Source of the DNA: Amphiscolops sp. MND2022
Lineage: Eukaryota
DNA length: 64,000 nt
Reading direction: 5' to 3'
Assembly: GCA_964187785.1 (NCBI GenBank)
Contig: OZ076409.1
Coordinates: forward strand, 53,756,001-53,820,000
The translations under genes were made by a program, and so were the position numbers. The notes beneath the pieces were generated by a model. The model saw only the letters and a list, made by a program, of their open reading frames with translations. It did not search any database and was not told the origin of the DNA. This document shows, piece after piece, positions 15,579-40,700 of the stretch (positions are counted from its first letter, which is position 1; each line of letters starts with the position of its first letter).

Positions 15579-15581
15579 ATT

Positions 15582-15594: not shown

Positions 15595-15819
15595 AAAATT
15601 TTTCTTTTGCCTTTTCTCCTGGATGATTTCTCTTCTCTCAACAATCATACAAATACCACTCTCCATATTTGAAATTCTCTGGAATTGCAGTGAAATCTTT
15701 CTAGAATTTCTTGAAAGTTTGGTCTGTGACTTTCTAAATTTCATTACCAAATACATCATCGTTCGAAACACAATTTCTCCACTACAACAATCAATTTTAA
15801 TATAACAAATTCTCTTCAA

Positions 15820-16100: not shown

Positions 16101-17455
16101 CAACTTTCTTCAATCCTGCTATCTTGAACGTCAGGTGGACTCCTGGTGTAATAGTTGACTGAGTGCATGTCCAACTCCGCTCACCTATAAGCACATACGT
16201 CTCAAGATCAACTTCGTGTTGGCAGAAAACCTGGATTTTCTACTTTTACGTTTCGGATCCCCTTTCTACAAAATTTCCTACAAAAAAATTTCAGAAATAG
16301 ACTCTGAAAACAAAAAAAGGCAACCAAGACTAACTATCAAAAACAACCACGCACTATTCCCTTTCTTTCCCTTTTGTCGACAAACAATTCAAATAAATTC
16401 ACAAAACTTAAATAATACACATAACTTCAAAAATGTTTTCAACAACCAACAAAAAGAACAATAACAAATAAACTCAAACTTACATCAAGTACTTCCAATA
16501 ATAATAATAATTTTAACATAATTCTACAAAACAATTATTTTAACAAAATACAACATACAATTTTCACAACTCTTTTGCTTTAAAACTTAAAATAAGGCAT
16601 GTAAAAAACACAAACAAAGTAAAGTTAGTTTTCTACTTTCAGGCACCCACAATTCCTATTCCCTCCCGTAAGACTTAGCCAATCAGATAGCCTCACCAGC
16701 GTACTTTGATTCTAAGACTGACTAAAAACCTTAGTTAAGTGTAAACGTTTTTAAGGAGAATCGAGAAGACACCGAACTACGTTCGAATCTTCAAAATTCT
16801 CAAGAAGTAAAAGTAAAAGTAAAAGAAACAAAGATCAAATTTTGATCTTGATCAGTATTGATCAGACTTTAGATAGTGGACGTTGATTGTTCAGAGTTCC
16901 ACTCCTTTAGTCTTAAAACACACAACCCACTTAAAATTAAAACAACCTTAGTTTTTCTGGACGTGTCAGTAACCTTATGTTAGACACCTTAAAGTGATCC
17001 AGACTTAAAATAACATTTAGTTTCTGTTAGCAATCCTTTGCGGTTGAATACAGATCCTACTGCACCCGCTTATTTCTTCTCTATCCCAAAATATTAACTT
17101 CTCAAATGACTTCAAATTACAATACAACCTATATGAACCCAAACCAAGAATTTTATCCTTTCAACTTTTACATTCCACCAATTAGCTCACTTTAAAACCC
17201 AAACGAATTTGAAAGATTAATTGAACGATATCAACGATATTTCTTCTTTATCATAAATCAACAAAGAAATTACCCAAGAGCTCGAACTTAGAAAATCTTT
17301 ATACAAGACATTCTAACGTTATAACCTTCACATTACAACATGTGGGAAAAGGTTACCACAGTAGTACTCATTACAACATACACGTTTTGTGTCTTATTTA
17401 TAGTTTGTGTTCTTCTTGAAAAAATACTTACAGTGATAAGAGATAAACTTTAAAA

Positions 17456-20314
17456 TTGTCCTCAACGACAACCCCTCTACCTTTCCAAACTCCCGCCATT
17501 AAAAATGCAAAAGTTGTAAAATTAGAACTAAACCCATTTCTACAAAACATTCTTTCACATTATACACAACCACTCCCATTTGAAAATGAACCACACACAA
17601 TTGAAACAATCCCTCTTATTAGAGAACATTTGGACACAAACCTTTTCTATATTAGATATAAAGTTTTAACAATCACCGAAGAATACCCAACTTTTCAAAT
17701 ATCCTTTCCTCAACAAAAATTCAACTCATCTCATATATACAGAAGAACAATAAACCCAATAAACCTTCAAGTTCCTATTAAACAAGTTTTTCATGCTTTT
17801 CTAAATAATATAAAAGACCACAGTTCAGCACACGAAATTCCAAAATATAGTCCAAATGCACTCGACGATCTTCAACGATACATAGACAATTTTGACGTAG
17901 AAATTATTGAAACATTGGTTAATCCTGAAGACAACCCTCATCATTGGTTACAAGCTGATATATTACGAATTCAAAATTTCATCTACCACTACTTCAAAGA
18001 CCTAACATTAAATGACCAAACAATTCCTCAGATCAAAGTAATATCTTTATTTCTCAGAAAATATTTCAGATTTACTTACCAATTATTATGGTCTCAACAA
18101 GATCAATCTGCTTTTACAGAATTTCCAGATCAATTTACATCAGAAGAATGTTTACCATTCATCATCAGTGAACAAAATGAACACCCTTATTTTCATAGAC
18201 CACAAAAAATTACAAAACAAACCTTAGATTACATACGTTTCGATCCTCTATTAATTACAGAAAATGATCTATTCCCAGATATTAGACCTTACCACTATCA
18301 ACAAAATTCTCAAGATCAACAAAATTTACATTTTAACACTAACAATTCTACTGAAGATAATAACACCGATCAAGAAGATACAACCCAACAACAAAATCAA
18401 CCTGATAACTATAACGATAATGAGTTTACTACCCAAGAATCTACAATCTCAACATATAATCCATCACAAACAGGGACATCAACATCAGTACATACTCACT
18501 CCTTTAGAGTTCCAACTAGAGGTATAAATCAAAGACAAAATATACATAGTCCTCAATCTCATTTAGATACATCTCCAAACCGTAATATAACTTTTAACCT
18601 TCCACATACAGATGACATAAATGATGAAACCCATGATACATTACAATATACATCTAGTACTCAGAATACTTCTGCTAATGTTGCATCTCCAAGAAGAACT
18701 ACCTCTGATTCTACAAGATACATTACCCGACCTAGATATGATCCTCCATCAATTCCCTCCGCTTTTCGCTCAAACCGATCAACCATTTCTAGTAACAATT
18801 TTAATGATAATCCTCAAACTTCCAACCGATATTACGATCCATTTAATTATAACTTTTATCCTCCATCAAACACAACTACCAATACAAATATAAACCAAAA
18901 CCACTCTCAAATTAATACAATTTCAACAACACAAAATCCCTTCATACAATTATCAAATACCAATACGTCCCAGAATATATATTCTCAAAATCGAGGAACC
19001 TCGTGTACTTCCATTTCTTATTCTAATACTACACAGGATTTTCAAAGAAGACTTCATAATCCTCCACTCACACATATACCAACTGATCCACTATATCAAA
19101 CGCATTCAAATCCAAATCCTAACCCTAATCCTAACCCATTACCACCAAATACAATCCAATATATACCTCCACCACTCACACAACAATTAGCTCCGCCACC
19201 CCAATATTTCCCAATGCCGCAAGACATCTTTATAAACATGTCCGCTTCAATACCAGAACCTATGAAACCTTTTGATGGTTTGGACCATTCTTACGCCCCC
19301 GGAGAATATCTACAACAAGTCGAAGCAAGCTTAACCTTCGCCATAGGTGAAGAACCTCAAAATAATCCTATAAAATACAAATCTTGGCATAATAGACGCA
19401 TGGCTTACATACAATGTTCATTAATAGGAACAGCTCTCGATTGGTACACTAACCTCCATATATCATATAAACAACAATGGAATTCCTTTGTACAACTATT
19501 CAAAAAACAATTCTCATCTCAAAAAACTGCTTACTACGCTCAAGTAGAAGCTATGTCACTCATGAAAAAGGATAATGAAACAGTTCGCCACTTTGCCCTT
19601 AGAGTACAACAATTAGTTAAAAAGGGATGGTGTAATGAAAATGCAGCTACCATAAATCTCAAAAATAATGAAATCTTTACAAAAGGATTACCAAAAAAGT
19701 TAAAAGATTTTGCCCATAAACGACAAGTTAAACATGTATCAACATTACTTGAACCTTCAATACCATTTCATACACTTGTTAGACATGTCGACTCAGGAGA
19801 TATTGCTAATGAAAAAATCAGAACTAACGACTTAGCCCTAGAAATAAATAAAGTATCGCTTGAAGACGATACTAACAAAAAAGAATTTGAATACGAAGAT
19901 CAGATAATGGTTACTCAAACTGGAGACCCAAATAACAAAAGCAAACCAGCGTATAGAAAATATTGTTCCTATTGTCATAAAAATAATCATAGTATTTCAA
20001 ATTGTTATCAAAAACAACGTGATGACGAATACCAGAAATACAATAAACAAAGATCACGAACTCCTCAACAATCCTTTGTACAATATTTTCGCAGTAAACC
20101 TAATAATCCTCAGGAAAATCGAAATGAAAATACAAACTCTTATTCCTCAGATAATGATCGTAATAAATATAATCAAAACTACTATAATGATAGATACAGA
20201 AACAATGATAGATATCGTAGCAATAGTAAAGAATATTCGCAAAACAACTATAGATCAAACTCTCGACAAAAATATTATAATCGATCCCGAAGTCCGTATA
20301 GATCTCGATTTTGA
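17456..20314 (+). CDS. gag: Gag-like polyprotein with a long N-terminal extension, an N/Q/T/P-rich linker, a retrotransposon capsid domain, a CCHC knuckle and the start of an RS/RY-rich tail
   Basis: 952-aa ORF containing PFDG...YLQQVE, LIGTALDWY, W..FVQLFKKQF, ETVRHFALRV (Gypsy gag core) and CSYCHKNNHSISNC. Confidence 0.85.
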   Translation: MSSTTTPLPFQTPAIKNAKVVKLELNPFLQNILSHYTQPLPFENEPHTIETIPLIREHLDTNLFYIRYKVLTITEEYPTFQISFPQQKFNSSHIYRRTINPINLQVPIKQVFHAFLNNIKDHSSAHEIPKYSPNALDDLQRYIDNFDVEIIETLVNPEDNPHHWLQADILRIQNFIYHYFKDLTLNDQTIPQIKVISLFLRKYFRFTYQLLWSQQDQSAFTEFPDQFTSEECLPFIISEQNEHPYFHRPQKITKQTLDYIRFDPLLITENDLFPDIRPYHYQQNSQDQQNLHFNTNNSTEDNNTDQEDTTQQQNQPDNYNDNEFTTQESTISTYNPSQTGTSTSVHTHSFRVPTRGINQRQNIHSPQSHLDTSPNRNITFNLPHTDDINDETHDTLQYTSSTQNTSANVASPRRTTSDSTRYITRPRYDPPSIPSAFRSNRSTISSNNFNDNPQTSNRYYDPFNYNFYPPSNTTTNTNINQNHSQINTISTTQNPFIQLSNTNTSQNIYSQNRGTSCTSISYSNTTQDFQRRLHNPPLTHIPTDPLYQTHSNPNPNPNPNPLPPNTIQYIPPPLTQQLAPPPQYFPMPQDIFINMSASIPEPMKPFDGLDHSYAPGEYLQQVEASLTFAIGEEPQNNPIKYKSWHNRRMAYIQCSLIGTALDWYTNLHISYKQQWNSFVQLFKKQFSSQKTAYYAQVEAMSLMKKDNETVRHFALRVQQLVKKGWCNENAATINLKNNEIFTKGLPKKLKDFAHKRQVKHVSTLLEPSIPFHTLVRHVDSGDIANEKIRTNDLALEINKVSLEDDTNKKEFEYEDQIMVTQTGDPNNKSKPAYRKYCSYCHKNNHSISNCYQKQRDDEYQKYNKQRSRTPQQSFVQYFRSKPNNPQENRNENTNSYSSDNDRNKYNQNYYNDRYRNNDRYRSNSKEYSQNNYRSNSRQKYYNRSRSPYRSRF

Positions 20315-23300
20315 TAATTATTATCAAAGAAGAACTCCATCTAGATCTCCATATAGATCTCCATACAGAAATAACTCAAATTACAGATATAATTCTCGCT
20401 CAAGATACCGATCTCGTTCTCAATCACAAGGAAACTCCTTTAAACGATATAATTACCCATATAGATCTCCATCAAGACCTAGAGATTTTAGATCAAGATC
20501 TAGAACACCCTCAAGAAACAGACAACAAAACAGAATAAATCAAGTAGACGTTAAAACCCCAAAAGAAATTGATAGTACAAAATTTGAAATCCACACCTGT
20601 CAAATGACTGAAATAGCTAATACAATCACCCCTTATAGTTGGCTTTATCCACTATATATTCACACCTCTGAAACAAATGACAACATATTACTTTCAAAAT
20701 TAGAAATCTTATTCCTTTTAGATACTGGAGCTTCCATATCTGTTTTGAATTTACCAACATTTCATGTAATTTCCAAACAATTAAACATCAATGTTCCAAC
20801 TAACCTCCAAAACAAAAGAGCCAAAACTCTTACAGTTGCAAACCAAACTGAAGTACCAATAATACATTATATTTCGATGACTTGTTTCACTGAAGTAAAT
20901 CACAAAACAAGATCCTTCAATATCGATTTTGCTGTAGCAAATATCAAATACAACATTCTTGGAACACCCTTTTTCAAAAAGCACATCCAAAATATTGATT
21001 TTCAACAAAACATTATGACGTACACAGAACAACATCCAAAGCTTTCAACAAAAACCACATTTTCTACATTTACAGAAAAAGATTATCCATATATTTCTTA
21101 CATTTATATAATTAAATGTAAGGAACCAATTCACTTTAAACCAAGATCAGGAAAAACCATACATTTCCCAATTAAAAACTATTCAAATCTACATTTTGAA
21201 CTCGAAGATAGTACGAAGTTCTACCCAACAAACCCATATACATATTTCTTACAAAAATTTAAAAATATCTTTCATTTCTTAGACATGATAGTCAATGAAA
21301 AAAGCAAAGACTCATGTGCAACTATAATACAAAACTTTACATCTTACCCAGCTACATTACCACGAGGAATTATTGGATATATAGAAATACCTATTACGCA
21401 AACAACTCCTCCTCACTACAGAGTTAACGATGTAAATTCACTCATTCACTCTGTAATACATGCATATCACCCTGATACGACAACCCCGATTAAACAAAAT
21501 CCATATACAGATATGAACTTATGTACTAGGGTAATACCACAATCCCTATTAGGAATAAACAAGATAGAAATTAACGACAAAACACTTCAACTTCCTATAC
21601 CTTCTGTTACTGGAAACCTTCGACCTTCAGATAAAATTCGAAAAGATTTCCCTCCATTACCCTATTCTACAGAAAACCAACAATTCATAAAGAAGTTCAA
21701 TTTCGAATACTCAGATTTAACCGATACAGAATATGTAAATCTCTGCAATATTCTAATTAACAACCAAAATTGTTACGCCAAACGTAAAAACGACGTAGGA
21801 AAGATTTCTACTCCTTTTCGAATTAGAATAAAAGATAATTGTAAACTTCACACACAAAGACCTTCTAAAGTACCTATCCACTATAGAGATATACTAAATA
21901 AACTTTTACTAGAACTCGAAAAATACAACATCATAAAACAAATTGGTTCAACAACAGATGAAAAACATACTATTGGAACAACATTTTTAAACCCTTTAAT
22001 TATTATCCCAAAAGGAGACGCAATAAAAGTTGTTTTAGACGCAAGACATCTAAACTCAAACACTAACCAAGAACTTGAATCTTGACCTATTGAACCTTTA
22101 GCTCCTCAATTAGCTAGAGCAAATAAAAAATACAAATCAACTATTGATCTAATGTATGCATATGCTCATACACCATTAGATGAAGAAACAATTAAACTTA
22201 CAGGATTTTCATCCGGTGACAAATTATACGCCTTTATCCGTGGATTTTACGGATTAAAAGGACTTCCAAACTTTTTCACAAAACAAATGTCAACTTTCTT
22301 TAGATCACTTATAGACAAACGTTCTGCGTTAGTTTATATAGATGATATTCTATTACTCGCAAATGAAAAACAAGAAATGTTTGAACTTATAAAAGAATTA
22401 CATACAATAGCATCTCGAGAAAATCTCAAACTTGCACCTGAAAAATCGTTCTACATGTTACTCAAAGTAAATTTCCTTGGACATGAAATTGGTAACAACA
22501 CAATCAAGCCAATTCCATCCAAAATTGAAGCTATTAAAAGAATCCCATCACCAAAAGAAAAGAAAGATGTTATGCAATTTCTTGGCAGTGTTAACTTTTA
22601 TTCAAAATTCATTGAAAAACTTCATATAAACCTTAAACCATTGTATACATTACTACATGATGATGTTAAATTTCAATGGACACCTGAATTAGAAAAACTA
22701 TTTCAAAATGTTAAAAACGCAATGACAGCAGACACTGAATTAACAATACCCAACACCACGCATCCATTTTTTATAACAGTAGATGCTTCGTTAGTAGGTT
22801 TAGGCGCAGTCTTATTCCAAATGAACGAAGAAAATAAGATGGAAGTAATCTCTTATAACTCCAGAATTCTCAATACACAAGAACAAAAACTTTCAACTTT
22901 AGATAGAGAACTTCTTGCAATAGTTTACGCATTACAAATATATGAATTTTTGATCATTGGATCTCCTCATCCTATATATCTCTTCACAGATCACAAGCCT
23001 TTACTACATTGTTTCGCAAAGAAAGGAAATCTTAGTCCTAGATTCTATAGAGCACAAATGCAATTAACCAAATTCTCCAAATTAAAAATCATTCATACCC
23101 CTGGAAAAAATTTAACTGTAGCAGATATGCTTCCAAGAACCTTTACAAAAGAACAGCTACAAGTACACCAATTACGACACAAACAATTACCACCTCAAAT
23201 AGATTTCTCTATCATGAAAGATAATCAACTCAAACCAGTACATTATTTAGTAAAACATGAAGAAATAAAATATAATCAAAAAAAATGATTGTCATCCTAT

Positions 23301-25475
23301 CCTTGCTGACTACGGAGACGACCAATTCTCCATCCGTATAAATAACAAAGGAGAAGATATACATATAAAGCCTTTAGATTCCTTCTCTTTTCAATCTATT
23401 GTTCCATTCGAATCAAAATATAAAAGGCCTACAAAAAAACAAGCAAAATCTCTTTCACACCAATCGACAATTCTTAATGATACCGACATTCTTAGTGATG
23501 AAGATGAAATAACACCATCAAATAATATCCAACAACAAAACTCGAACATAGTAAAAGAATACACCCTTGCTATACAATATCCTACCAAATCTGACTATTG
23601 TACACAACAAGTTCCATTTTTTGATCCGTCCTTTTTCAAATACAAAAAATATTTCTTCCTACCAGAAGATACACAAATAACCATTGAAACAATAAAAACT
23701 CAACAAAAACAAGATACTGTCTTACAAAAGGTTTACCAATGGATACTTAATAATGAAAGACCCTTACAAATAGACCCAACAATTGCAGCTAACTCTTTCT
23801 TATTAGTCTATTACAAACTCTTCAACCAATTATATATTAATCATGATACAAAAATTATTCACATAGATTATCCTAATCTTCACGATTCCAACCCGAATCA
23901 AAGAGACAAAATATGTCTACCATTTAAACTTTTCCACACAGCTTTTAACAAACTTCATGCTCATGGAGATTCAGGAATAAAAATATCCATCAAAGCTTTC
24001 AACCAATTTTACTTCATACCGTACCTGAATAAATGGATGTCAATATTCATCCATGATTGCATTGAATGCCAACAAAATAAACATATTAACTAAAAATTAC
24101 AAATTGCATCTATACAAACCTTCTCAGAAAATGCTTCATATTTTAATTACCGAATATCAATGGATACAAAAGGACCTATAAATCCACCATCAAATCAAAA
24201 TTCATACATTCACGTTATAGTAGACGCTTTTAGTCACTTTGTAGTAACAGTACCCATAAAACAAAATAATGCTCAAAACGCTGTTAACTCATTACTACAT
24301 CATTGGATAACAAAATTTGGACCTCCTGTATACCTAGTTACCGACCGTGGAACAGAATATATTAATTCAGAATTTGCAAATCTTTGTACCACAATGGGAA
24401 TTAGACATTCACCAAGAACTCCTTATGCACCATGGACAAATGGTTTAGTTGAAAATCAAAACAGAAATCTTGGAACTCATCTCAGACTTTTCTTACATAA
24501 CACTCCAGAAAATTGGTCAACTCAAGTCCATATGTATGCTTATGCACATAATTCACAACCACTTTCTGAATTAAACTTATCTCCATATGAAATAGTATTC
24601 CATACTAATACCCAGAATTCCAATCAACTTTGAACTCAATCTCCAAAGAGATACATATAGAAATTGTACTTCTCAATATTGTCAAGAATTACCACTTCAT
24701 ACACACTATGACAAATCAAATCTAAACCCTTTCTTTCATGAAATTTTAGCTAAACCAATTCCACAATGGATCTTAGCTACTGAAACTGCTATGATACAGA
24801 TATACCATACGGTATATGAAAACACAAAAAGAAAGATTAATTCCTATGCTTATTTTAACAAAACATATCACAATCCAAGACCCTTAGATATTGGTACATT
24901 TGTACTAAAAAGAAATTTTCTCCATGTTCATTTTTCCGATAAATTAAAACCTCTCAGAATTGGCCCATTCAAAATTATTAACAAACTCTCCGATATAACA
25001 TATGAAATTGTTAATCAAGATGGTTATACATCGCACATACATAGAAATCATTTAATTCCTTATTATCCAAAAGAACCAGTTATTTTCCCTTTCATACAAC
25101 AATATAACCCTCATTTATTTAATGACTGTCATTCAAATACAAATGATCAAATAATTAATTCTGATGAAGACAAATTTACAGACGAAGAACAATTTCCTTC
25201 CACAACATTTAATAAAGAAACGGATATACCATCCACGATTGACTTACAACCAGAACCATTTAACCAATATTCTTCATTTCCATATAAACAAAAAGAACAA
25301 ATTCCTCAAAATACCTCCCTGGATAACCAATCAGATATTCATGATTATGATAATTTTATTAATCCCTGAAGACACTCCTATAATAGATACAATTTACGCC
25401 CACAACCAAGAAAAGACTACCGACTCTTTCTTGGTGAAAAGGATATAATTTCACTTTCTCAAAAATCCTGCTGAA
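20019..25475 (+). pseudogene. pol: Pol (aspartic protease, RT, RNase H, integrase), disrupted
   Basis: LLDTGAS (PR), VYIDDILL (RT), TVDASLVGLGAVL and TDHKPL (RNase H), HAHG..CIEC, SMDTKGP, VTDRGTEY and NGLVE (IN), GPF motif and C-terminal RYNLR. In-frame stops at ~22083 and ~24091; frameshifts at ~23285 and ~24610. Confidence 0.92.
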
Positions 25476-25649
25476 ATACGGAATACAGAAAGAAATACAC
25501 ACAAAGAAAGTTTGAAAGAAAGAAAAAGTTTGAAGCTTAATACGAAAATAAATGAAATTTATTTCACGAATGAGAATAAAAGAAAGAAATTCTAATTGAT
25601 ATAAAACTATAACTATTTTACAAGCTGAAACTAACTATCATAACACAAC

Positions 25650-27113
25650 GATTTCAAAATTGATAGACATATTCACTCACCATCATCAACTACAAATAAC
25701 TCTTCTTCTAGTTCAACACATTCACTCCAAAGATTACCTGAATAAACAGCATATTTAAATTCAGATACAGACATACTGGATTCCTCATCCTCAAATCCCA
25801 GTCCATCCGCTCCATATACTCCTGATAGAGTACCAACAACACCCACTAATACACCTATATCCCAAACTCAACCACAAATATGAACAACTCAATCACAACC
25901 TATTTCACGAAATCTAATATTTTTAGAAACAAATTCACCACTTTCTGACTCTAATGATGAAACACCTACAATACCAAATACACAAGATACTTCAGATATT
26001 TTGAATAGACCTCCTCTTCCACCGATTACTACCACTCGTTCTATTCATATCCCTGATCCTAGCTCAGTCCTACAATACATAAATTCTTGTCCACACAAAG
26101 TACCAACTGCTACGAAAACAAAAAGAAAAACTCCTTTACCTACATTACCACAAAATCTTGATTTACCATCATCAAGTAATATCCCAATAACATTTTTACC
26201 AGAACCGTCATTAAAATCACCAACGAAAAAATCACAACAATACCCAACTCCTTCACCATCGGAACTAAGTTCCTTCACATTTTCTCAAATATATCCCAAG
26301 CTTGAATTACAACGTGTACATTCAACAACTACCTCTTCATCAACAGACTTATATCATAAAGATAAAGACTCTGACTCAACTGCTAGTACTAGAGTACCAA
26401 GACATAATTATAACCTTCGATCTCAACAACAAAGAGATTCTCAAGAATTACAATCCTTAACTAGTTCAAGTACAAACTCAAGACTACTTCGACAACACGC
26501 CCAACCCAGATTGGACACTTCTTCTCTTTCCTCATCTCAGCCCTCTATACCATCTTCTCTATCACTACCATTTCAAATCACATCAGGATTTGAAACAGCC
26601 TCTCTTCTTTCTTAAGAGCCAGCAACTATATCAGATAGCGCAGCTAATTTTTCACGAGTTTACTCACCTAGTTCAATAGCCTCAAACTCCTCTACACAAT
26701 TACCTGGATATTTTTTAGAAGACTTCTCAAGACCTCCATCGCCAAATCCTCACGAATATCCTATTCGTGTTAACTCAAAAATTGTTCGCACGCTTAACGA
26801 AGATCCTCGATACACGGTATTACCTGCAAGATTTATAAAAAATAGTTCACTCTCAACTCAAAGAAAACAAAGAGAACTACGGAGATTACAAGAACAACAA
26901 CTCACATTAAAATTTGAAGTAGAAGTCACATTTAACTCGTTAGGACCTCATCCATTCTCTCTTTCAACAAGAGTAGCACATAAAACAACCCCATCACCAT
27001 TCATTGTTACCTCCATTTCCTACCTTTGTGACGCCGATTTACCTGAGATTAGAACAGGACATATAAACTTTTTTAATCCCTACTCAGGACTCAATTATAG
27101 ATCAATATTTTAA
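25650..27113 (+). pseudogene. Accessory ORF between pol and env: Ser/Thr/Pro-rich region plus a globular-looking C-terminus; several premature stops
   Basis: The frame of ORF 26001-26615 resumes after its TAA and stays open to a TAA at 27111-27113, 2 nt before the env ATG. It contains a YNLRS motif. Confidence 0.55.
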
Positions 27114-27115
27114 CC

Positions 27116-29684
27116 ATGAACCAAATCACCTTTACCTTTCATTTACTATATATAATACAAGTTGTTAAATACACGTATATAATAAATATAGTTCACTCTT
27201 TAGTTCACCCTTCAACTGTTCCCAAAGTTGACACCACCATTTCCGAAAATCATATTTCAGACCAAGATCCTAACATTTTAAACTTAATGGTATCTCATTA
27301 TGATTGTGCAAAACAAAATAACTTAAGACAATTCAGTTCATTAAATGTAGAACCATGTAAACAAGCACCCTCAGATATACAACACACAAAAACCCAAGCA
27401 ACAGTTTATGTTAGAGCAAAAGCCAAAAGAATAAAAGCCTTTAAATGTGAAGCATATATAAAGACTGAGAAAGTCTGGTAATCACAAACATTCACATCTA
27501 GTAGACGATATGATCGTTTACAATGGGGACAAAACACATTAGAACTTCCAAAAATATTGGACCCTATTGAATGCAAAAATATGATCAGATATTTAAACGC
27601 GACTGATAGCGAAGAATTAAACAACTACAATATACAAAACTCTTTCTCATTGTTCGATGATAGTAATTATCAAAACACAATTGAACGAATTCAGACACCA
27701 TTTAGAGTAAAAAAATTAAATACATGGCATATTGGAACCTTCGTATTTGACGAAAATTATCCTGATTGGATAGTTAATGTTACACAAAATACATACTCTA
27801 GATGTCGATCAGACCGCGAACATTTAATTACCCGACAAAGTTGGAAACTTAGAATTGTTAACACCGCAATAGATTATGACGATAAAAACAATCAATTAAT
27901 ACATGACGGACACATATTACCATTCAGACGGATTTTGTAAATCAACGATCAAAACTCCATATACATTAACATGGTTTGATGAAAAATTTTGCCTCATATT
28001 TCAACTTCAAGAATTTATTGGTAGAATGACACGAATCAAAGATAGATATTGGATAGAAACCGATACCTTTATTGAAACTTCAAACATCACACAAAAACTT
28101 CAAACCGAAGGAATACAAGGAACAAAATACCCTAATATAAAAACACCACAATCAAAAGTAAGCAATCCAAGCCTTTCTCGATTTGAAATATACCCAATTG
28201 CACAAACCTTCTGTGGAAAACCTGAACCATTATTTTCAACACAATATGATGACATCTTTGTTACATACTTAGATGGTTTTGATATGAACACAGGATTACC
28301 AAAACCACTTTCAATAATTGACCAAACAATTAGTGGAAATATAAAATATGATGATTCAAACAAAAGGTATATATTCCCCGCATTGAATATATCAAACAAT
28401 TTCGCCACTTTAGACTATGATGCCCACATTAATACAAAGATTGATTTCACAATAAATCATGTATTTAAATCCATGACAGTACAAGAACTAAACACTCTTC
28501 ATACAATATGTGAACTAGAAAGAACTCAACTGTTAACAATACTAGCAATGTCAGTTAAAAATCCCCAATTAGCTGGTTTTCTTTTAACTGGAAATCGTAG
28601 TAACTTTCTCTACGTTGAAGGATCTACAGCATGGCTGTATGATTGCCCTCATTTTATATCACCACTATACAAGGCAGATAAATGCTTTGATAGAATTCCT
28701 ATACACTACAGAGAAACGATAATGTATGTTGACCCAATAACAAGACAAATTTTTAACTACGCAACACCAATTGAATGTGGAAATAACCCACAAAATATAA
28801 TAGAATTAGATCCAGATTCCAACGACGGAGATTTTTATGTGTTAACACCAGAACCACTCAAACGAGAAGCACCACAAATGTTTAAACCTACCCAAATTAA
28901 AACAACAATCACTCCTAATACATTTACCGCCCAAGATGCCGGTATATACTCAAATGCAGAATTAGATCAATTCTGGAATAGAGTATTATTTGCTAAACAT
29001 TCAGACACAACTCTTCAATTACTTGGAAAATCATTAAGCTATGATTTCATTTCAATGCATAATGAAAAACACTCATACTCAGAACATAATCCCTATATTC
29101 ATTTAAGGATTGGAGTACATGACCACTTGTTAAATCTTTTACCACTTTTTAACCCTGACTGGTTCAGTCAAGCATTCATTAATTTCTTTGGATACCCATG
29201 TTATGTTTTAACCCAATGTGGAATTTATTTTTCAACATTCCTTTTCTTTAGAGAAGTTTTAACATTTTTACTCAAATTCTACAGAACAATTAGCATAAAA
29301 TATAATCTCCAAAGCAACATTTCCATTTTGAGTTCAATAGCCCATGGATTTTTCAATATAGTTACATCGGAAATGGTAACCGATTTAAATAATACAGGAA
29401 AACGAAAACGGATATATACTAAACACAAAATTACAACAAGTGAAAATGATAATATCCTATTGCCGGAAAAAGAATTAAACAATAAACGAAGACACTCTGA
29501 TACTGACTCCCCTTATTTACCTCCTAAATATTCCAGTAAGAATTCAACATTTCAATCACCGCAAAAGACACACCCAACTAATGTAAACGATATTAATTCT
29601 CAGGACTATGACCCAATAATGTCAAATGTAATAGCTGTACCGGAAAGTCCTGCTAAAGTCTTTATAAAATTTAATCCCTCCTAG
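27116..29684 (+). pseudogene. env: Envelope glycoprotein, chuvirus-G / herpes gB-like (class III fusogen type); one stop and one frameshift
   Basis: Hydrophobic N-terminus, YDC..N...SSLNVEPC, LHTICELERTQL, AWLYDC...CFDRIPIHY...YVDPITRQ....TPIEC, C-terminal TM segment (CGIYFSTFLFF..VLTFLL) and a cytoplasmic tail. Pieced together from ORFs 27116-27481, 27557-27940 and 27903-29684. Confidence 0.75.
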
Positions 29685-30105
29685 CTGAAAAGCAATAACT
29701 TAAAAAACAAATTAACCTCAAGAAAAGTTCACAAAATTATCAACCAAATTCTTCTCAGTTTCAACTTTCATTCACACCCAAATTCTCACTCGGACTGGTC
29801 TCTCCTTTTCAACTCAACTCAACTCAACTCTCAACCAAAAGACTTCAACTGGATTTTCAGTCCATCTAAACGACCGAAATCACAGAAGTTTCTATTCCTG
29901 GAATAGATGCCACTGTGATTGTTGATGTGTTCAACCCATCATTGACCCAGTATTCCCATATTGTAAGTACAATTTAAACTTTAATTTTAACAAACAATTT
30001 AATGGATAGAAAAGACATAATAAAATTTTTCCTTAGTATTAGAAAAAATGTAATCAAATGTTATAATTATTATTTTAGCTCTACAAAAACACGCAAGTTT
30101 AAATA

Positions 30106-31397
30106 ATGGAACTCTTGCCCGATATTGATGTAGTTAACTCTAATCCCTCTGAATTGCTTGCAACCCCTTTGAATATAACTATTCAACAAAATGTTAACGA
30201 AGATAATAACTCTTCCTCCAACTCTCAAGATCCTATAGAAAATATCCCTATTGAACAAGTAGATCATGTTAACACAAGATCTCAAAAAAGAAAGTACCCA
30301 GATATAACCGCAGATAAACCTTTTATGGAATCTGGCGCTTGCCCTCCTTTCATAAAACCAATTAAACAAGATGAAGATAGAGATCGTGAATTAGTTCCTA
30401 TTCTCTCGTCGAAACAATTCACATTTCAATCTCAGTTAACTTCGTTATACATGATTCCAACAAAATACAAATTCATCATCAGAGAATTTAAAAATGATTA
30501 TCATACATCAATTGCTTCAAAACTGATTACCCCATATGATTGGTGGTTAAACAATAAAATGAAAATTTTCTCACTTCAATACAACTTCCTCAGACCATCT
30601 CCATATGATCTTCGAACAGAAGAAAATGATGCAAACTTTTTGCCATATCAAATCAAAAAGGCCCACCATATGACTTATCAAAAGTTCCTTCAATATAAAG
30701 AGCCCGATAATTATATATTCTTCAACTCCAAATATACATCGCCATTCACTTTCAACTCAGAATATTTAAAAGATCATACCAAAACAAAAGGAAAACTTAG
30801 AAATTATGACCCGCTGAAACAAATTTTCTCTTCCTTCCAAATGATAACCCAAAAAGACCAATCATTGTTCCACAAGAATACCTCATTCTAAACGACGATT
30901 CGTTACTACAAGAAGATATACCTCAACATATATCTGATCCTCTTCCTCCACTTCAACAAATAGCCTCTCAACCATTGGGAGACTGTGAAAAGTCTTATTT
31001 TCACGCAATGATCAAAAAGGGATATTCAAATAATGAATTAATTTTCATTATTTCCCACCTGCTTTCACTTCTTACAAATGGAAATCAGAAAGAATATAAA
31101 AAGGCAAAACAAGAATCGCCTAAGAAAACCAAAAATGATATTCCTCAACCACAAAGTTTTCGCCCAACAGATGAATTACAGAAATATACAGAAATCCTGA
31201 ATATCATAAAACCGTATCATCATCCAAACCGAGATATTCTTATAACAATCGCTGAAATCGTAAATACCCTTGAACAAGCTCGAAGCATAATACAAAATAT
31301 CGTATTTGATACGACAAGAATTAGCCAATCAGCTTTGTGCATTCGCACATCCTTAGACGAATTCAACTACACTATTGAAAAAATGCATCGATCTTAA
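30106..31397 (+). pseudogene. Accessory ORF downstream of env, unknown function (two fragments, probably frameshifted)
   Basis: ORFs 30106-30891 and 30975-31397 lie inside the LTR boundaries and share the element's codon bias. Confidence 0.55.
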
Positions 31398-31918
31398 CTG
31401 GTAATTATGGGATAATAGCTTTAAAGTTATTAACACTTATCACTTAATCTCTTAACAACCTGTCAATATTAATTGAATCTACACGCATATGCCTGGTATG
31501 CATGATTCTAATACATGCTTGATGTTAAAATACACTTTTAAAATGAAATAACACAAAAATTTCAATCAAGACATAAAAATTTTCAACGAAATTCTTCAAT
31601 TGCTCCTCCTTTTAATGGACCGATTTCAACAAATAAGTACTTATATGAAAGATATTTAAATACCCTTCAAAAGACTTCCAAAATACAACAACTTAATAAT
31701 TAAAATTAAAAAGTTATAACATCACAAAATTCAATAAAAAAATGTCAACTACGAAATTCTATTTTCAAAGGAACTTTATTGTAAACAAACTAATCTATTT
31801 TAGGTGAATATCGTCACAACTGCTTCTTCAGCATTCCTTCCTGCTCTCAGGTCACCCATTCAAGAAGAATTCCGAAGTATCTTCTACAACTTTCAACGAA
31901 ATTTTCTCATTCTTCAAT

Positions 31919-32395
31919 ATGACAACTATCCACTCTGGCGACATTGACTGCCCAATAGCTCCTTTTCTTTCAATCTCTTCAGCTCGATTGCGATCCTTGA
32001 TCCTGAAAAAGCCTTTAACGACATTAAATGCGCAGCTTCGAACAGAAAAAAAGGCAGACCCACATCTTACAAGGATGATATTGCTTAATATGTTCCAAAT
32101 ATTCCAAATAACAAGAATAAATTTCGACCAATATCTCCATATTCATAAACATCCTGACACTTATTCAAATCAAAAGGATGCCACTACCCAAACAGAACAT
32201 ACTACCACCAAACCCAAGCGTTTAATACGAACTTTATCCAATAGAGTGCGTTCCGAAATGGAAAAACAACGTCTAAATTCATATTGGCCCTCAGATGACA
32301 ATGATGACACTGGCGAAGACCTTCAAAAAGATCCCCCAGAAGCACTTTTAGACGATAACTATCCACACAAAACATATACTTACGTTTCCTTCTAA
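31919..32395 (+). CDS. Second 3' accessory ORF fragment, unknown function
   Basis: 158-aa ORF inside the element, preceded by a candidate acceptor TTTTAG at ~31798-31803. Confidence 0.4.
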   Translation: MTTIHSGDIDCPIAPFLSISSARLRSLILKKPLTTLNAQLRTEKKADPHLTRMILLNMFQIFQITRINFDQYLHIHKHPDTYSNQKDATTQTEHTTTKPKRLIRTLSNRVRSEMEKQRLNSYWPSDDNDDTGEDLQKDPPEALLDDNYPHKTYTYVSF

Positions 32396-33429
32396 CATCA
32401 ACAGACGCCACCAACAGCACCCGTCTACTCCCATCTTCAAATTCCACATCCTCAACGAGCAACAGATCAGCACCCATCTTCAACTTCATCGCCGCCCAAC
32501 AGTTGCCCACCTTCATTCATCTGCTGACCCTTCTTCTTCCATCTTCCAATCGTCCATCGTCACCCACATGCTCAGCCGAAGATGATCGATAATTAATAAT
32601 AAAGAAAACTCAAAGAAAAAACATTGTGCACGATAACATTTCGAAAAGTTTCAAACTCATCTAATATTTCATAGAATTCAAACTCTCATCTAAATTATTC
32701 ATTATGTAGTTATTATTTCAAATTTCATCCCCACCTATATTTATTTGCCCAAAAATCTTTTATTCACACCCGTACCGATATTTATTTGCTTTATTTTTAA
32801 AGAATAATTAGTAATAATTATTATTTTTTGGTGCTATCCTATCCAAAAAATTCACAAATATTATCAACAAATCTTTTCAAATTTCAACAAAACCAGCTCA
32901 AAATCAGATCAAGCACATTGTTCAAATCAAATTCGAATAATGACAGACCCAAATTCTCAAAGTTTTCAACATTTGTTACATAACAAACCCGCCAAAGTTA
33001 ATCACAACCTGAAATCTTTTCAAACGTCTTTCACGTTTCAAAAATTTTTCTCAACAATATTATTTCTTTGACTCTTTGACCTCTAACTCGTATGATGTTT
33101 GCTCATGTTTGTTCAATGCGAAGTTCATTCAAAACTTCAACAGAAGCATAAAATTGAGCATCTACCAGTTCAAAAAACAAGCCGACGAAAGCATAGTGAA
33201 AAAGAACACTTTGACGCTTTTGAACTGTAGTCGCACCTACGAGGTGTCAATCAAAATTTTGACAATTCGAGGTACACCAATGAGTCGAACTTACACCACT
33301 CTTAACGAGACTTATGCCAATCATCCATCAAATGAAAAATGTTAACTAGCTGAAACGCTAAGAACATTTAACCAAAAATATTTTTCTTCATTTCAATTAA
33401 TGATGCTACTTTGAAATTTTATTTTATTT

Positions 33430-33444
33430 AAAAACCGGGATGGA
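33430..33444 (+). promoter_or_regulatory. Polypurine-tract-like sequence
   Basis: AAAAACCGGGATGGA immediately precedes the 3' LTR; imperfect. Confidence 0.5.
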
Positions 33445-33712
33445 TGTACTGACCTACATTAATAACCAATAGTATTTAGATGCTTATAGAATGTTCTAGA
33501 ATGTACATTTATTTGTTATTGAATGATTGTAAATCTCTACTCCTTCAGAGAGAGAAAACTAATAATCAGTATTCAGTTGACTTCCTTTTTGTTCTACTCC
33601 TAACACCTCGGAATAGTTGTAATAAAGTAAGCTAGCTAGCCTGTCTCTCAGCCGCTTTTAGTAGTTGCGTATAAGACCATCAAAACAATAACCAACCATT
33701 AAAAGCAGCACA
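33445..33712 (+). repeat. 3' LTR (268 bp)
   Basis: Direct repeat of 15311-15578. Confidence 0.95.
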
Positions 33713-33949
33713 AAAATGATTTGAAATCTGACTATTTTATGAAATCAATGGGAGGAAAGAAATAATGATGAAAAATTTGTTATTTAATGGGTTTTTTTGT
33801 GTTGATTGCCTCAATTTCATCTGCTGGAGGTTTTTTCTTTCACGTTTTGCAATAATTTTCAATGCCTAATGGTTATCTGTGATGATTGCCTCAATCCCCA
33901 GATTCTGATATAAAGTTTGGCCCTAAATGTTTTTTTAAAAAAAATTAGT

Positions 33950-34197
33950 TTTTTTAGGTCTTATTCCCTATTTTAGGCTTTATTCCCTATTTTAGGCCTT
34001 ATTCCCTAATTTAGGCCTTATTCCCGTTTTTATTTTAGGTCTTATTCTCGTTTTTTAGGTCTTTTTCCGCATTTTAGGTCTTATTCCTGTTTTTTTTGGT
34101 CTTATTCCACTACTTTTGAGTTTTAGGTCTTATTCCTTTAGGTCTTATTCCTTTTGACTTTTTAGGTCTTATTCCTTAGGTCTTTTTCCCGGTCCCC
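33950..34197 (-). repeat. Right arm: inverted tandem TTAGGTCTTATTCC repeats
   Basis: Reverse complement of the left-arm unit, about a dozen copies. Confidence 0.9.
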
Positions 34198-34312: not shown

Positions 34313-36276
34313 TAGGGATTGCAGTTTGATGCGGCGCGTAATATTGCATAATTAGTGCGTAATCACGTCCTTTTGATTCCCGCGTATTTTCGCATCAAAT
34401 AGCGCGTAATAAACCGATTTTCACGGCGTAGCAAGTGCGGTATGTAAACAAAAAGTTTGACTGTCAGTCATTTAATCTACTTACTGTTTTTTGTTTTAAG
34501 ATTAAAGTGCTTGTATAAAACATTACAATGTGCTATGTCTGATTCAAGCGACACAGCCTCGGAGTTCGACATTATGGTTATTCATCCTGTCCAGCCTTCA
34601 ACATCAAGCGGACCTCCTTTATCAAACAAATCACGGGCAAAACAGCTACATCTTTCAACTATGACGGCGAAACAGCGCGCGGCCAAGCCTGGAAACGACG
34701 GCTACAAATTATTCTGCAGAGTGTGCTCAAAGCACATCAACCACGAGCGGCAATCAGTACTGACTCGTCATCTTCAATCTAACAAACATAAGGAAAATTC
34801 AAGATCAAGTATTGCACCAAAACGTCAAAGAACTATTGATACGACACTTAACGCCCCAAATCAAGCAAGTTTGGAAAATTACAGAGTTGTTTCCGATTTT
34901 GTTCGTATGTTGGCCTCCGCCAAAATTCCATTCAATGTTGCCAACAATCCTGTTGTTAGACAATTTCTACACAATCATGTGCAAGGGGGAGGTGCAATAC
35001 CATCTGGTAAGAGTTTAAATCTCTATCTTAGTCGCTGCTTTAATGAGGATTACGAAAAATTAAAAGAGATGGTCAAGGACAAAAAGTTTATAATCATTTT
35101 TGACGAAACAACTGATAGTGTCGGAAGGTACGTATGTTGCGTTATGTTTGCAATCTTTCCGCCAACTGAAATTAGTGTCAAACCGATTCTTGCCGACGTC
35201 TTTTTCGAAGAAAGTGCACTTGATCACTTTGAATCATCTCAAAGCTCTACATCAGGTACAAAAGCTTCCACCTCGCCCCATAGATACCAGATGGTCTTCT
35301 ACATTTGATGCTCTTGTATACAATAGCAAATTTTTCGAATCTCTGAAGTCCTATTTACATTTGGAAAACCAGCTATCACCAGATTTAAAAGAGTTGCTTG
35401 GTATACTACAGAACAACTACAAGCAATTGGTTTTCGAAATCAAGTTCGCAAGTGTGTGAGCAGAGCGCTACATTAGAGCATTAAAAATTTTCGAGTCAGA
35501 CTTATGCGTGGGCATGTTTTTGTACGGCGCGATAGAGGATATTTGGTATGACTTGATGTCAAACAAAACCATGCCCGGTGAATCTGTGGAGCAGATACTA
35601 GATCTGATGACCGAAACTTTTACATCAGGTGAAAAAAGTATATTGATAGAACAAGTTCAAAAAGCCTCAGAGAGTGCAGAAAAAAAGTTAGCCAAATACT
35701 TTTGTGACGAGAAATCTAGCATTGAAGGAGAAATTTCAGGGTGTCACCCTGCAAGACTTTTTCTCAAGGAAATTCAGTATTTTCATCCTGTGAAATGTTT
35801 GCGGATGCCTGAATTGCCCCAATTTACCAATATTCTTGATTTCGGATCAGTTCCTGATATCGAAAAAAGACGTTTTCGCGGACTTGCGAGAGAATATCAA
35901 CTACCCACTGATGGACAAGGCATACAAAAACTTGCAAACGAAATTCAAGCAGTCATGGACTTCTGGAAAGCGTCTGCACCGTCAATTCCAATTTTATCTT
36001 CAATCGCGATGAGATATGGATTTGTATTTTGCTCTTCAGTGGCCGTTGAAAGGACGTTTAGCTATTATAACAAGCTTTTGTCCGATGAAAGACACCGTCT
36101 TGCCCCGAAAACACTCAAGGAGCTTCTGTTTTTATACGTAAATTCAGAGAGAAATAAATAATAAACAATTGAATTAGCTTGAAACAAACATGTTTTTACC
36201 GCGTAAAATCCGCATAATTTTGGAAATTCCGCGTAGTTCAGCGCATAAAATGCAGTATTTTACCGCAACCCGCATC
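34313..36276 (+). mobile_element. hAT DNA transposon, internally deleted, right TIR truncated
   Basis: Left end TAGGGATTGCAGTTTGATGCGG. The right side retains only CCGCATC. GCGTAA/GCATAA subterminal repeats occur at both ends. Confidence 0.75.
34535..36161 (+). pseudogene. hAT transposase (CGGBP1-like zinc finger N-terminus), broken
   Basis: KLFCRVC...LTRHLQSNKH zinc finger, IIFDETTD, TRWSS, FWK...SSVAVERTFS dimerization motif. Frameshift/deletion at ~35230 and a stop at ~35457. Confidence 0.85.
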
Positions 36277-36498: not shown

Positions 36499-37725
36499 AT
36501 GAACATGCCCCCGAAAAAGTCAATCGCCACAATAAAGGTAAAACTTCACATTGCAAAAACTAAAATGGAGTCAGCGTTGAACAGTTTTTCTAAAGAATTA
36601 GAGTCAGAAAAGCCAAACATTATTGCAATTAACCATTACAAAAACACAGTACAACTAAGACTTGAAGACTTAGAAAAGAAAACTTATGAAGGATTTGACG
36701 CAATCCCAGCAGAAGAACAAACCGAACTCATCGACCAGCTCTCGCAATTTCATCTACAAGTCGATGACCTTGCACAGAAAAGTATGCACGTCAGCGAAAC
36801 ACAGGCATACATACCGCCAGCGTCCACTTTTCAAACCATGACAGCTAATCAAAACCCGACGTCGCTAACACTCAAACAGGACGTGCAGCCAATGTCAGTT
36901 TCGATGCAACCAACGATGAAGAAGATCACAGACGACAACAGACACAACCGGACAACAGCAACTCAACCACAGAGACTGTCAACAATCATCAAGCAATTGC
37001 AGCAGACAACCAAGAGGATCGACAAGGGTCACTGCCAGCAGCATCCGCAGTCCATGCAGCTACGAATGCCACCGCAGATCACTGTTATACCATATAACCT
37101 GACATTTGGACCCTACTTGAACACACTGCCGAAGATGAAAATTGAATCCTACACTGGGGACCCTCTACAGTGGTCTGATTGGAGAAGTCGGTTCGACTTC
37201 ATGATCGGCAACACAGCACTCAGCAACAGCCAGAAGATCGCGTATCTACAAGGATTAGTAACAGGTAAAGCAAAAGACGCCATTCTTCATTTCCACTGCA
37301 ACGGACAGATCTACAATGATGCCCTGCGAGAACTCGAAAGAAAATTTGGAAAAACAACGACAATTGTTAATGCGTACATACAACAACTCTCGGACTACCA
37401 ACCACCAATCAAAGGAAACCCTGAATCATACATCAACTATACAACATTCATCAAAGGAACGATCCGCAACCTGCAGCACTTAGAACACACAGCTGACCTG
37501 GAATCAACGACCAACTTGCGACATGCCATCAAGGAACTACCCACCTCAGATCTTATACGATGGCAACAATACATCGTCAATCGCCGTATCGACAGACCAA
37601 ATCTGATTACCTTCTGCGATTGGTTGAAACCGATAGCAGAAGCATACGAGCTACTAGAAGACAGTGATAACCAACAACTACATACACTACAGACATTTGC
37701 AACACAGACCATTAACAGCAAATGA
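36499..37725 (+). CDS. gag: BEL/Pao gag N-terminal part (truncated by premature stop)
   Basis: KIESYTGDPLQWSDWRSRF..LSNSQKIAYLQGLVTGKAK..Y..AL..L...FG. Confidence 0.8.
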   Translation: MNMPPKKSIATIKVKLHIAKTKMESALNSFSKELESEKPNIIAINHYKNTVQLRLEDLEKKTYEGFDAIPAEEQTELIDQLSQFHLQVDDLAQKSMHVSETQAYIPPASTFQTMTANQNPTSLTLKQDVQPMSVSMQPTMKKITDDNRHNRTTATQPQRLSTIIKQLQQTTKRIDKGHCQQHPQSMQLRMPPQITVIPYNLTFGPYLNTLPKMKIESYTGDPLQWSDWRSRFDFMIGNTALSNSQKIAYLQGLVTGKAKDAILHFHCNGQIYNDALRELERKFGKTTTIVNAYIQQLSDYQPPIKGNPESYINYTTFIKGTIRNLQHLEHTADLESTTNLRHAIKELPTSDLIRWQQYIVNRRIDRPNLITFCDWLKPIAEAYELLEDSDNQQLHTLQTFATQTINSK

Positions 37726-40700
37726 TCAACAAGTCAATCAACAACCTGCCCTCTAGGAGATGGACGACACCAAATCTTCAAATGCCCAATTTTCATCGCA
37801 CAGAGCCCGGAAGAGAGACAGATGACTACGAGAAACAGTGGTCCCTCATTTAACTGCCTGAACAAGAACCACCGCATCGCCAACTCCCCTTCAAAGAAGA
37901 ACTGCCAACATATCGACTGCAATGAACGACACAACTTTACTTCATAGAGACTTCCAGATAGCCGGTAACTCATCACACCTCACCGGAAGACAAGGATTCA
38001 GAACAAACGACAGAAATCATCCACCAGAAATTTCTCATAACAAAAGCCCAAGCCAGAAAGAAACTGCATCAGTTCACGTGACACAAAAGGAATCGACGAA
38101 TAACTGCCTTCAAAAGAATACAGAAGCCGAAAACTACAGAACAGAGACACATCAGCCAGCAGCCACTTTGCAGATTCTACCAATCAACCTGCACAATCAA
38201 CAGCGCTCTACAGCAGTGTACGCTCTACTTGACAGTGGAAGTACGTCAAGCTTCCTCACAAAGAACATAGCAGAAAAGCTGAAACTCACCCCGAAGACAA
38301 CAACGACGCTCAATATTAAAGGATTCAACGCAGCACAGACAATCAACAGTACCGTAGTTGATCTGCAAATATCTGACATCGAAAACAGAAAAACCCATAA
38401 TTGTAGAAATGTCTACGTAGTTGACAACGACCAACTGCCAACAGTCAAAGAGCACCCCAAACAGATAGCCGACAACTATGGACATCTCAGAGACATCCAA
38501 TTGCCACATCTCAGTAACCTGAACGTAGAGGCACTACTTGGATGCGACAAGTATGCTCTCATTATAGCTAGACAGCATCCTACAGACATCAGCATTCTAC
38601 ACCAACGAATGATGTCTACTTTTGCCAAACATGTGAAAACCACGAGCAACAACTGTTTGAAGATGTCAAAAAATGGTGGAACGTGGAATCTTATGGACCC
38701 AAAGCAGCAACCGAAGACCCAACGACTAACGACGAAGACAAAGCACTTGAAATACTCGCAGACACTTGCCGCAAAACAGATGACGTACGATTCGAAACAG
38801 GACTCCTCTTGAAGTCAACTGAGGAACTGCCAAACAATCGCATTTACGCTGAAAACCATTTGAAGTCCCTACGGAGGAAACTCAAAGACGACGACGACCT
38901 AGCGCAGTCTACAGAAACGAAATACAGAAAGACTTGGACAAAGGATACATAAAAGAAATCAACGAAGAACAAGAGGAACACAGCACCAAGTGGTTTCTAC
39001 CACATTATGGAATAGTTAGCCTGGCGAAACCTGGAAAGATTCGCCGCATTGCAAACGCCGCCGCTGTCTTCAATGGAACATGCCTCAACGATCATCTACT
39101 ACCTGGACCCGACCTACTGAACGACCTAGTTGGAATCATACTACGCAGTCGCGAGAAGCCAATACTCATCACCGCCAACATAGAAGGTTTTTTCATCCAA
39201 GTTGGAGTCCGAAAATAAGATCGCAAGTTCTTGCGATTTTTGTGGAACGACGGCTTCAACAAACCACCGAAGGAATTCGAATACCATAGACACATGTTTG
39301 GTGCCAGAGATTCACCCGCTTGCGCCATCTACGCTTTACAACAAGCAGCCAGAGACAACGCGGAGAACTATCCAGATGTTCTCGAAACCGTGACAACCGA
39401 CTTCTACATGGACGATTTTGTGAAATCCGTTGGATCAACCGAAGAAGCACTACAACTACATCAACGATTCAGACACGTTTTAGGAAGCCACTCCTTCAAC
39501 CTTATCAAGTGGTGTAGCAATTCCCGAGCATTCTGCAATGAACTGCATGAAAGCCTTTTAACGACCGAGAAAGACGAAATTTTCACAAAGAACAATAGAC
39601 AAAAGGTACTGGGAGTTTCCTGGTTCCCAATCACCGACATTTTTGCAGCTCATATAAACAAACACAACCCGGACATGCCCCAGAAATGGACTCAACGCAA
39701 ACTGTTAGAACTTCTTTCACGAATTTTTGACCCTGTGGGAATAACAGCACCTGTCACAATTGTCATGAAGATAAAGTTACAAGAGATATGGAGAAACGGA
39801 CAACACTGTGACGAAAAACTACCTGAAGACCTTCAACAATTCGTCAAGGAATGGACCACTAATACAGCACATTTGAATAAAATAAAGATCCCTCGATATT
39901 ACAATATGCCAACCGCTCAGCCAATAGAACTACACGTCTTCTGCTACGCCTCAACTCAGGCCCTCGCCACAGTCATTTTCATTTGATTCGCACACAAAAC
40001 AGTCTACCATACGCAATTCGTCATGGGAAAGACCAGATTCGTCCCACTGGAACCACAGACCACTCCAAAGCTGGAACTACAAGCAGCCGTCTACTCATGC
40101 CGGGTACAAAGAGCATTCATCAAAAACACGACCCTGTCAATCTCAAAGATCACACACTGGACTGACAGCACAGTTGTCTTACATTGGATTTACAACTTTA
40201 ACAACCAACAGAAAACATAAATTGCCAATCGACTACACGAAATACGACACACCACACCTATAGGTGATTGGAAATACGTACCTACAAAACACAATCCAGC
40301 CGACGAAGGAAACCGAGGAATCAAGACAACAGAACTCAAGCACTCAAAATGGATGAATGGACCAGCTTTTCTCAAGTTGCCTTAACAATTATGGCCTCGA
40401 ACTATCGAAGAAACCACACGCAGCACCCTAGAGAATATGCCGACATCAAAAACAGACGACATACAAACCTACAGCCTAATCTGCAATACACCGCATACAT
40501 TCGTGGACTACAAACGATTCTCATCGTGGAAAAGACTGCTTCGAACTACCTTCTATATTGTGAAGACAATGGATCTTGCGAAACGACGACTATCCACAGT
40601 AAAAGAACGTTATCAACGGAGTAAAGACATTCTGTTCAGAGTCACACAAAATGAAAGCTTTCCAGAAGATATCAAAGACATCCAAAGAACACAACCCGTT

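Follow-up and report, generated by a model that had tools for sequence, protein, structure and literature searches.

The question raised by this locus was what kind of element carries the interrupted reading frame at positions 27116-29684, and by what route its product could be made. The locus lies in a window of 64,000 nucleotides of the Amphiscolops sp. MND2022 genome, and positions given below are those of the window. The frame opens with an ATG at 27116, meets a stop codon at 27479-27481, changes frame near 27920 and ends with a final stop at 29684, all as read in the preliminary description, which had taken it for an envelope gene of the chuvirus/gB type on a Gypsy element. It is the broken envelope gene (env) of a Ty3/gypsy element of 18.4 kb, whose span of 15311-33712 encloses the env ORF. 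As had been stated, env lies downstream of pol (which ends at 25473) and inside the LTRs (15311-15578 and 33445-33712). Between pol and env stands an additional frame, ORF X, and behind env come two more, ORF Y and ORF Z; these were absent from the preliminary description. The features of the element are as follows.

15307-15310, no strand: left target-site duplication, AAAA
15311-15578, plus strand: 5' LTR, 268 nt, TG...CA
15582-15590, plus strand: primer-binding-site-like stretch
17456-25473, plus strand: gag-pol (Gag, PR, RT, RNase H, IN), with stops and frameshifts in this copy
25776-27113, plus strand: ORF X, Met-less, with a putative CUG start at 25776 and two stops in this copy
27116-29684, plus strand: env, predicted gB/chuvirus-type class III; broken by the stop at 27479 and the frameshift near 27920
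30106-31397, plus strand: ORF Y, frameshifted in this copy
31919-32395, plus strand: ORF Z, 158 aa from the first Met, no known family
33430-33444, plus strand: purine-rich tract preceding the 3' LTR
33445-33712, plus strand: 3' LTR
33713-33716, no strand: right target-site duplication, AAAA

The Ty3/gypsy carrier and its surroundings

The structural hallmarks of Ty3/gypsy elements were present, namely TG...CA LTRs, a primer-binding-site-like stretch, a polypurine tract and a target-site duplication. Duplications of 4 bp were found at 9/10 sibling insertions examined. The two LTRs of the window copy, 268 nt each, show 4 differences between them, and gag-pol, X, env and Y are all broken in this copy. 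Related elements in the genome fell into lineages A (the window type), B, C, D and E, plus the more distant F and G, with RT identities of 71-98% among A-D and of 45-47% to F and G.

In open copies gag-pol is a single frame of about 2,650 codons, on which the Pfam domains Retrotrans_gag, RVT_1, RT_RNaseH, Integrase_H2C2, rve and SH3_Tf2-1 follow one another in this order. The protease motif LDTGAS is present in the translation, and the tail of pol carries a Yx(L/F)R motif. Among PDB entries the RT was best matched by Ty3 RT (E 1e-37), followed by a caulimovirus-type RT (3e-26) and a foamy virus RT (1e-18), and Ty3 integrase was the best match to IN among solved structures. Within this set of references, the RT stood closest to Ty3, with the caulimoviral and retroviral RTs further off. 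The Gypsy-type pol of the earlier reading is thereby borne out by both the Pfam domains and the RT and IN matches. A BEL/Pao carrier of the Anakin type was rejected, as gag-pol has Gypsy-type Pfam domains only and its best RT match is Ty3; an identity with Troyka, which has a 3-bp target-site duplication, CG ends and no env, was also rejected. In a tree of 109 of the 118 RT sequences retrieved, mostly unnamed (nine were dropped for short coverage), a long branch, of 0.89 and with a support of 1.0, set the RT clade of the family and its sisters apart from all named sequences retrieved.

The primer-binding site of the wider family is complementary to host tRNA 3' ends ending GGTCGCA (Met-CAT, Leu-TAA and Val-TAC). 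The host genes for these three tRNAs, and for a Pro-like tRNA (called Gln), have the common 3' end GTCGCA. As several tRNA types carry this end, each primer site is compatible with more than one tRNA, and any primer named for the window lineage would be tentative. The longer primer site of lineages A/B found no match among the tRNA genes searched. The longest primer-site match to tRNA-Met was kept by lineage F.

A 19-nt unit occurs in inverted arrays on both flanks of the element (14733-14976 and 33931-34189), which look as if the element had entered a short derivative of a DNA transposon. On the 3' side of the element lies a broken hAT transposase (34448-36161), followed by a decayed element at 36499-42079, which we take to be BEL/Pao-like from motifs in its translation. 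A second Gypsy-type element occupies 51772-58181 and also has a YNLR motif in its integrase tail. Two host-type genes were seen in the window: a trypsin-like serine protease frame on the plus strand (42919-43770), assigned by its motifs, and a multi-exon beta-hexosaminidase on the minus strand (47561-50160), one exon of which was 30-34% identical to named proteins.

The envelope protein

The C-terminal piece of the broken env matched the Pfam family PF24664 (Monjiviricetes_fusion) with an E value of 2.4e-21, passing the cut-off, and the N-terminal piece gave a weak match (E 0.0036). An open sibling copy matched the same family with an E value of 3.4e-25, as did 4/4 env proteins of other lineages that were scanned in addition. 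Both cysteine motifs on which the initial assignment had been based are present in the env translations, and the cysteine columns are conserved in the alignment of homologues. No match to PDB chains was obtained by sequence, with either the single protein or a 29-sequence profile. The F family was not detected on env by Pfam at E values up to 1, and F-type and gp64 proteins were absent among the fold matches listed. A profile search of 1.84 billion representative sequences gave 3,636 matches at E values up to 0.001; of 10 distant relatives of env that were traced to their clusters, one was an aphid protein and nine carried no name.

A structure was predicted from a natural open copy of 856 aa and an alignment of 28 homologues, giving a monomer model whose confidence is middling (pLDDT 59.6, pTM 0.34). 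Its top matches among predicted viral structures were the glycoproteins of chuviruses, xinmoviruses and qin-like viruses (best E 1.6e-28, 18% identity), and its top PDB fold match was HSV gB (E 2.6e-13), with rhabdovirus G next after herpesvirus gB among solved structures. The alignment with HSV gB had a Z score of 9.3-9.5 over about 390 aligned residues at an rmsd of about 11, with a global TM score of 0.2-0.4; for gB domain IV alone, the Z score was 7.9 and the rmsd 4.3. With the PF24664 match and these fold matches to chuvirus G and herpes gB, the assignment of env as a gB/chuvirus-type class III fusion glycoprotein stands, as far as the predicted fold goes. Trimer formation and fusion activity would be expected of such a protein.

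The protein had been described as a signal-peptide and transmembrane glycoprotein of ~850 aa. This length agrees with open sibling copies (856-858 aa), which have two hydrophobic peaks, with 19-residue means of 1.45 for the N-terminal one and of 1.61 for the one near residue 704. In the model, predicted helices at residues 2-33 and 696-733 flank the ectodomain, which fits a signal peptide and a transmembrane segment. The size of the described protein is thus confirmed, and by hydropathy the N-terminal segment would be its signal peptide.

The dN/dS of env was 0.097 between lineages A and B and 0.070 between D and E. This purifying selection only shows the need of the element for env; the infectivity raised in the preliminary description would be no more than a possibility. 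A PPxY motif is present in the otherwise divergent cytoplasmic tail of env in lineages A-E (29520-29531 in the window); such a motif could recruit WW-domain ligases.

The accessory frames and a probable route to env

The gene order gag-pol, X, env, Y, Z was found in the five lineages A-E, with a distance of 1.3-1.7 kb between pol and env. X comprises 410-446 codons without Met, consists of ~40% Ser, Thr and Pro, is devoid of hydrophobic segments and has an invariant YNLR motif and a conserved C-terminal region. Y encodes 430-500 aa in open copies and belongs to no known family. X and Y could be aligned across the five lineages, with 32-42% identity between groups, and Z only within A/B and within D/E; homology of the A/B form of Z to that of C or D was not clear (best E 0.027). 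Judging by dN/dS in the A-B and D-E comparisons (X, 0.138 and 0.113; Y, 0.091 and 0.093; Z, 0.193 and 0.317), all three frames are under purifying selection. None of them matched a Pfam family above the cut-off, Y and the C-terminus of X had no usable match in the Atlas, and the structure model of Y (pLDDT 37) was unusable. Homologues of X, Y or Z were not found at the lineage F and G loci. A second frame of 209 codons within gag was rejected as a shadow frame (dN/dS 2.0).

A motif reading AT(A/C)-CTG-GAT stands in frame with X at the start of the cross-lineage homology in 8/8 representatives from five lineages, which amount to three kin groups (A/B, C and D/E) rather than five independent events. 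The CUG has an A at -3 and a G at +4 in all five lineages. The motif was kept in 76/80 further A/B copies; one of the others had CGG, and three were not matched. Only one of 82 invariant Leu columns is CTG throughout, and this is the putative start; among the Leu codons of gag-pol, CTG accounts for about 1% (2/186, 2/153 and 2/195).

Between the CUG and env, seven ATG triplets were counted against 39.6 expected, one of the seven being the env start itself, and the observed/expected ratio of ATG was the lowest among the 64 triplets. The ATG density was 1.07/kb in X and 10.09/kb in the similarly Ser/Thr/Pro-rich N-terminus of Gag. Seven out-of-frame ATGs were present in X against 19.3 under synonymous shuffling, with 0/1000 shuffles as low; the same procedure revealed no depletion in gag-pol, env, Y or Z. 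The AUGs remaining on the way to env number 0-2 and open frames of 1-16 codons. The absence of Met from X was rejected as evidence by itself, as the 2,575 codons of the Gag N-termini include just 2 internal Met.

A conserved near-cognate codon in strong context and an AUG-poor stretch downstream of it are thus both present, and a conserved non-AUG codon of this kind with an AUG-poor run is among the marks of leaky scanning in RNA viruses (PMC3542737). The same source gives RTBV as a precedent for a non-AUG start with leaky scanning, and A at -3 with G at +4 as the strong context. X is probably initiated at this CUG, with env produced by leaky scanning past it. Against this, the 70 nt that follow the CUG hold no stable hairpin (-2 to -6 kcal/mol). 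The A/B frame, moreover, stays open and conserved over ~44 codons 5' of the CUG, where an AUU also has a strong context, and the start of X may therefore lie earlier in these two lineages. Lineages F and G have the same env without X, which indicates that X is dispensable for env expression in general.

The proposed mechanism would begin with a subgenomic RNA whose 5' end falls within the gap of 125-350 nt behind pol and which is made by splicing or from an internal promoter; Tor elements show both of these (PMC4402516). Some ribosomes would initiate at the CUG and produce X, and most would scan a further 1.2-1.35 kb to the env AUG, passing at most the 0-2 AUGs with their short frames. The env product would be membrane-anchored and trimeric and, by analogy with errantiviruses, would bring about the fusion of particles, or of the cells that produce them, with an adjacent cell. 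Y and Z would be accessory proteins, for which RNAs of their own or reinitiation would be needed.

Alternatively, X might be a 3' exon that is spliced to an upstream exon providing the AUG of the protein, as for CERV in Cer1, with the conserved ATCCTGGAT acting as a DNA or RNA signal and the AUG depletion reflecting a long env leader. The long pyrimidine tract directly before the motif in D/E, the interrupted palindrome formed by the motif in C/D/E and the open frame upstream of the CUG in A/B are all concordant with this, and Gypsy elements with spliced accessory proteins exist (PMC10309623). The motif, however, contains no AG acceptor, shares the frame of X and, in each of the five lineages, stands where homology begins. 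No leader-to-X junction was seen in 80 copies, which weighs little, as 4.5 kb upstream of env was covered and the copies are young; these 80 stretches contained no spliced retro-copies, and nothing but ordinary indels, duplications and, once, a rearranged copy. A spliced X was considered unlikely.

The chromatin-binding motif of foamy virus Gag reads YNLR. Foamy virus Gag contacts nucleosomes through Tyr537 and Arg540 (PMC12125541), which have the Tyr-x-x-Arg spacing of the YNLR in X, although the likeness between the two sites appears limited to these four residues. That X tethers chromatin through its YNLR would be a guess by analogy, and a rather doubtful one.

If initiation at the CUG and leaky scanning operate as proposed, this would be a route of env expression so far not found for LTR retrotransposons, none having come up in the portion of the literature covered by the search. 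A whole gene in such elements would then have been missed by AUG-based annotation, and filters on the distance between pol and env could overlook whole clades.

History of env and relation to known elements

When env was searched for in the same genome, the best 150 of 7,712 candidates scored had 98-100% identity, and 62 of these 150, by hand count, lay in uninterrupted frames of 861-873 codons. A 21-nt marker of A/B gave 883 exact matches, a number that haplotype duplicates may inflate, against 0 for the reversed control. The LTR pairs of fetched A/B copies were 99.2-100% identical in 9/10 cases and 96.3% identical in one. The activity of the family is recent, with hundreds of young copies.

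It might be argued that env is kept for a task other than infection, such as cell-cell fusion, a block to re-entry or particle release, and that copying is intracellular only; the mechanism by which gB-type elements enter cells is indeed called unknown in PMC13524379. This was judged distinctly improbable, given that the full ectodomain, cysteines, transmembrane segment and sequons are kept at a dN/dS of 0.07-0.10 and that so many of the best env matches are uninterrupted. Since young copies and open env frames are plentiful in it, the family lends itself to the question of how elements with gB only enter cells.

Env is present in all lineages A-G. Its homologues in the sister lineages are 27-68% identical, those of F and G being 27-29% identical to A-E. 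Unrooted trees of env (seven lineages), IN (seven) and RT (six) had the same shape, with support at the deepest node of 85, 64 and 51, respectively, and no outgroup. Because these trees agree, env appears to be an old passenger rather than a recent capture, and has likely been carried by the family for long in co-descent with pol. The independent capture suggested in the preliminary description, by which this Gypsy lineage would have acquired a chuvirus glycoprotein, is accordingly disfavoured as a fairly recent event and was held very improbable, whereas an ancient one would still be compatible with these data: the nearest named structural matches are chuvirus and xinmovirus G, the RT clade stands on its long branch and the primer-site ending occurs in 0 rows of the PMC13524379 catalogue as available, but the viral matches are only 12-18% identical, sister-lineage env follows the pol tree, and gB-type env in Ty3/gypsy has been published as ancient and widespread (PMC13524379).

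The pairing of a Gypsy pol with a gB-type env is no novelty and is already published, which comes near to the case that the preliminary description had named as refuting it, an already described env-bearing clade with the same protein: HSV/gB-type env is widespread in Ty3/gypsy elements across animals, about as common as the F type (Chary & Hayashi, eLife 2026, PMC13524379), and was found there partly with Anakin-type BEL/Pao baits. Only fragmentary associations had been seen by Dezordi et al. 2023. The present elements share with these errantiviruses a Ty3/gypsy pol, an env after pol inside the LTRs, a predicted gB-like fold with an N-terminal hydrophobic segment and a transmembrane segment, many near-identical copies, and an env that tracks the pol tree. 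They are longer, at 18.4 kb, than the elements in the available catalogue rows of PMC13524379, whose outer LTR ends lie about 8-13 kb apart, and they differ in the coding insert of 1.3-1.7 kb between pol and env, where the prefilter of that study allowed 1,000 nt, and in the two frames after env. Accessory ORFs and splicing are not mentioned in the text of PMC13524379 as available, and its figures or supplements may contain long elements or extra ORFs; the catalogue, in its available form, lists neither acoels nor other xenacoelomorphs, and the primer-site ending of the window appears in none of its rows. The gB-type env on Ty3/gypsy is thus already known, and the layout with the X, Y and Z frames is the unreported part.

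Anakin, a mosquito BEL/Pao element with a chuvirus glycoprotein, has an env of the same Pfam family on a BEL/Pao carrier, in contrast to the Ty3/gypsy carrier here (PMC10084718). In RTBV, a non-AUG first ORF and an AUG-poor run likewise precede a downstream major ORF reached by leaky scanning (ORF I-III), but RTBV is a plant pararetrovirus with an AUU start, shunting and about 895 nt scanned (PMC3542737); here the codon would be CUG, the distance 1.2-1.35 kb and the downstream gene env, on a mechanism read from sequence. The env rows of Oikopleura Tor in the catalogue are F-type, and no CUG-started ORF is described for Tor in the available text of PMC4402516. Elements with additional ORFs, placed behind env or in the interval between pol and env, are known in general, and giant Gypsy elements (Burro, Ogre) and foamy-like fish ERVs of up to 17 kb also owe their size to accessory ORFs (PMC6431247). 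Burro, a planarian element, carries MATH_TRAF_C cargo, as does sister lineage F; its env is F-like and within the polyprotein (PMC6431247), and the X, Y and Z cargo here is without Pfam kin.

The clade might be pictured, with somewhat less than even confidence, as 18-kb, actively spreading 'complex' retrovirus-like elements with a gB-type fusogen, three accessory genes, a CUG-started chromatin-tethering protein and env made by leaky scanning on one RNA, and with sister lineages that carry other cargo, for example a TRAF-like signalling protein.

In lineage F, an ORF with a coiled coil and a TRAF/MATH domain (PF21355, E 9e-23) lies after env inside the LTRs (L067:5368-6519; L069:5433-6584). The stretch of ~4 kb between pol and env in this lineage (L066:7829 to L067:2907) contains one sense frame of at least 140 codons, and no ATG depletion was found on its sense strand. 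In one lineage G copy (L071:3140-3144), a single stop separates pol from an env that continues in the pol frame, which does not hold for the second copy (L073); readthrough of the pol stop is a possible route to env there. One lineage D copy was nested within the gag of an A/B-type copy (L047/L049), and in a further copy (L156) an LTR was fused directly to the integrase region.
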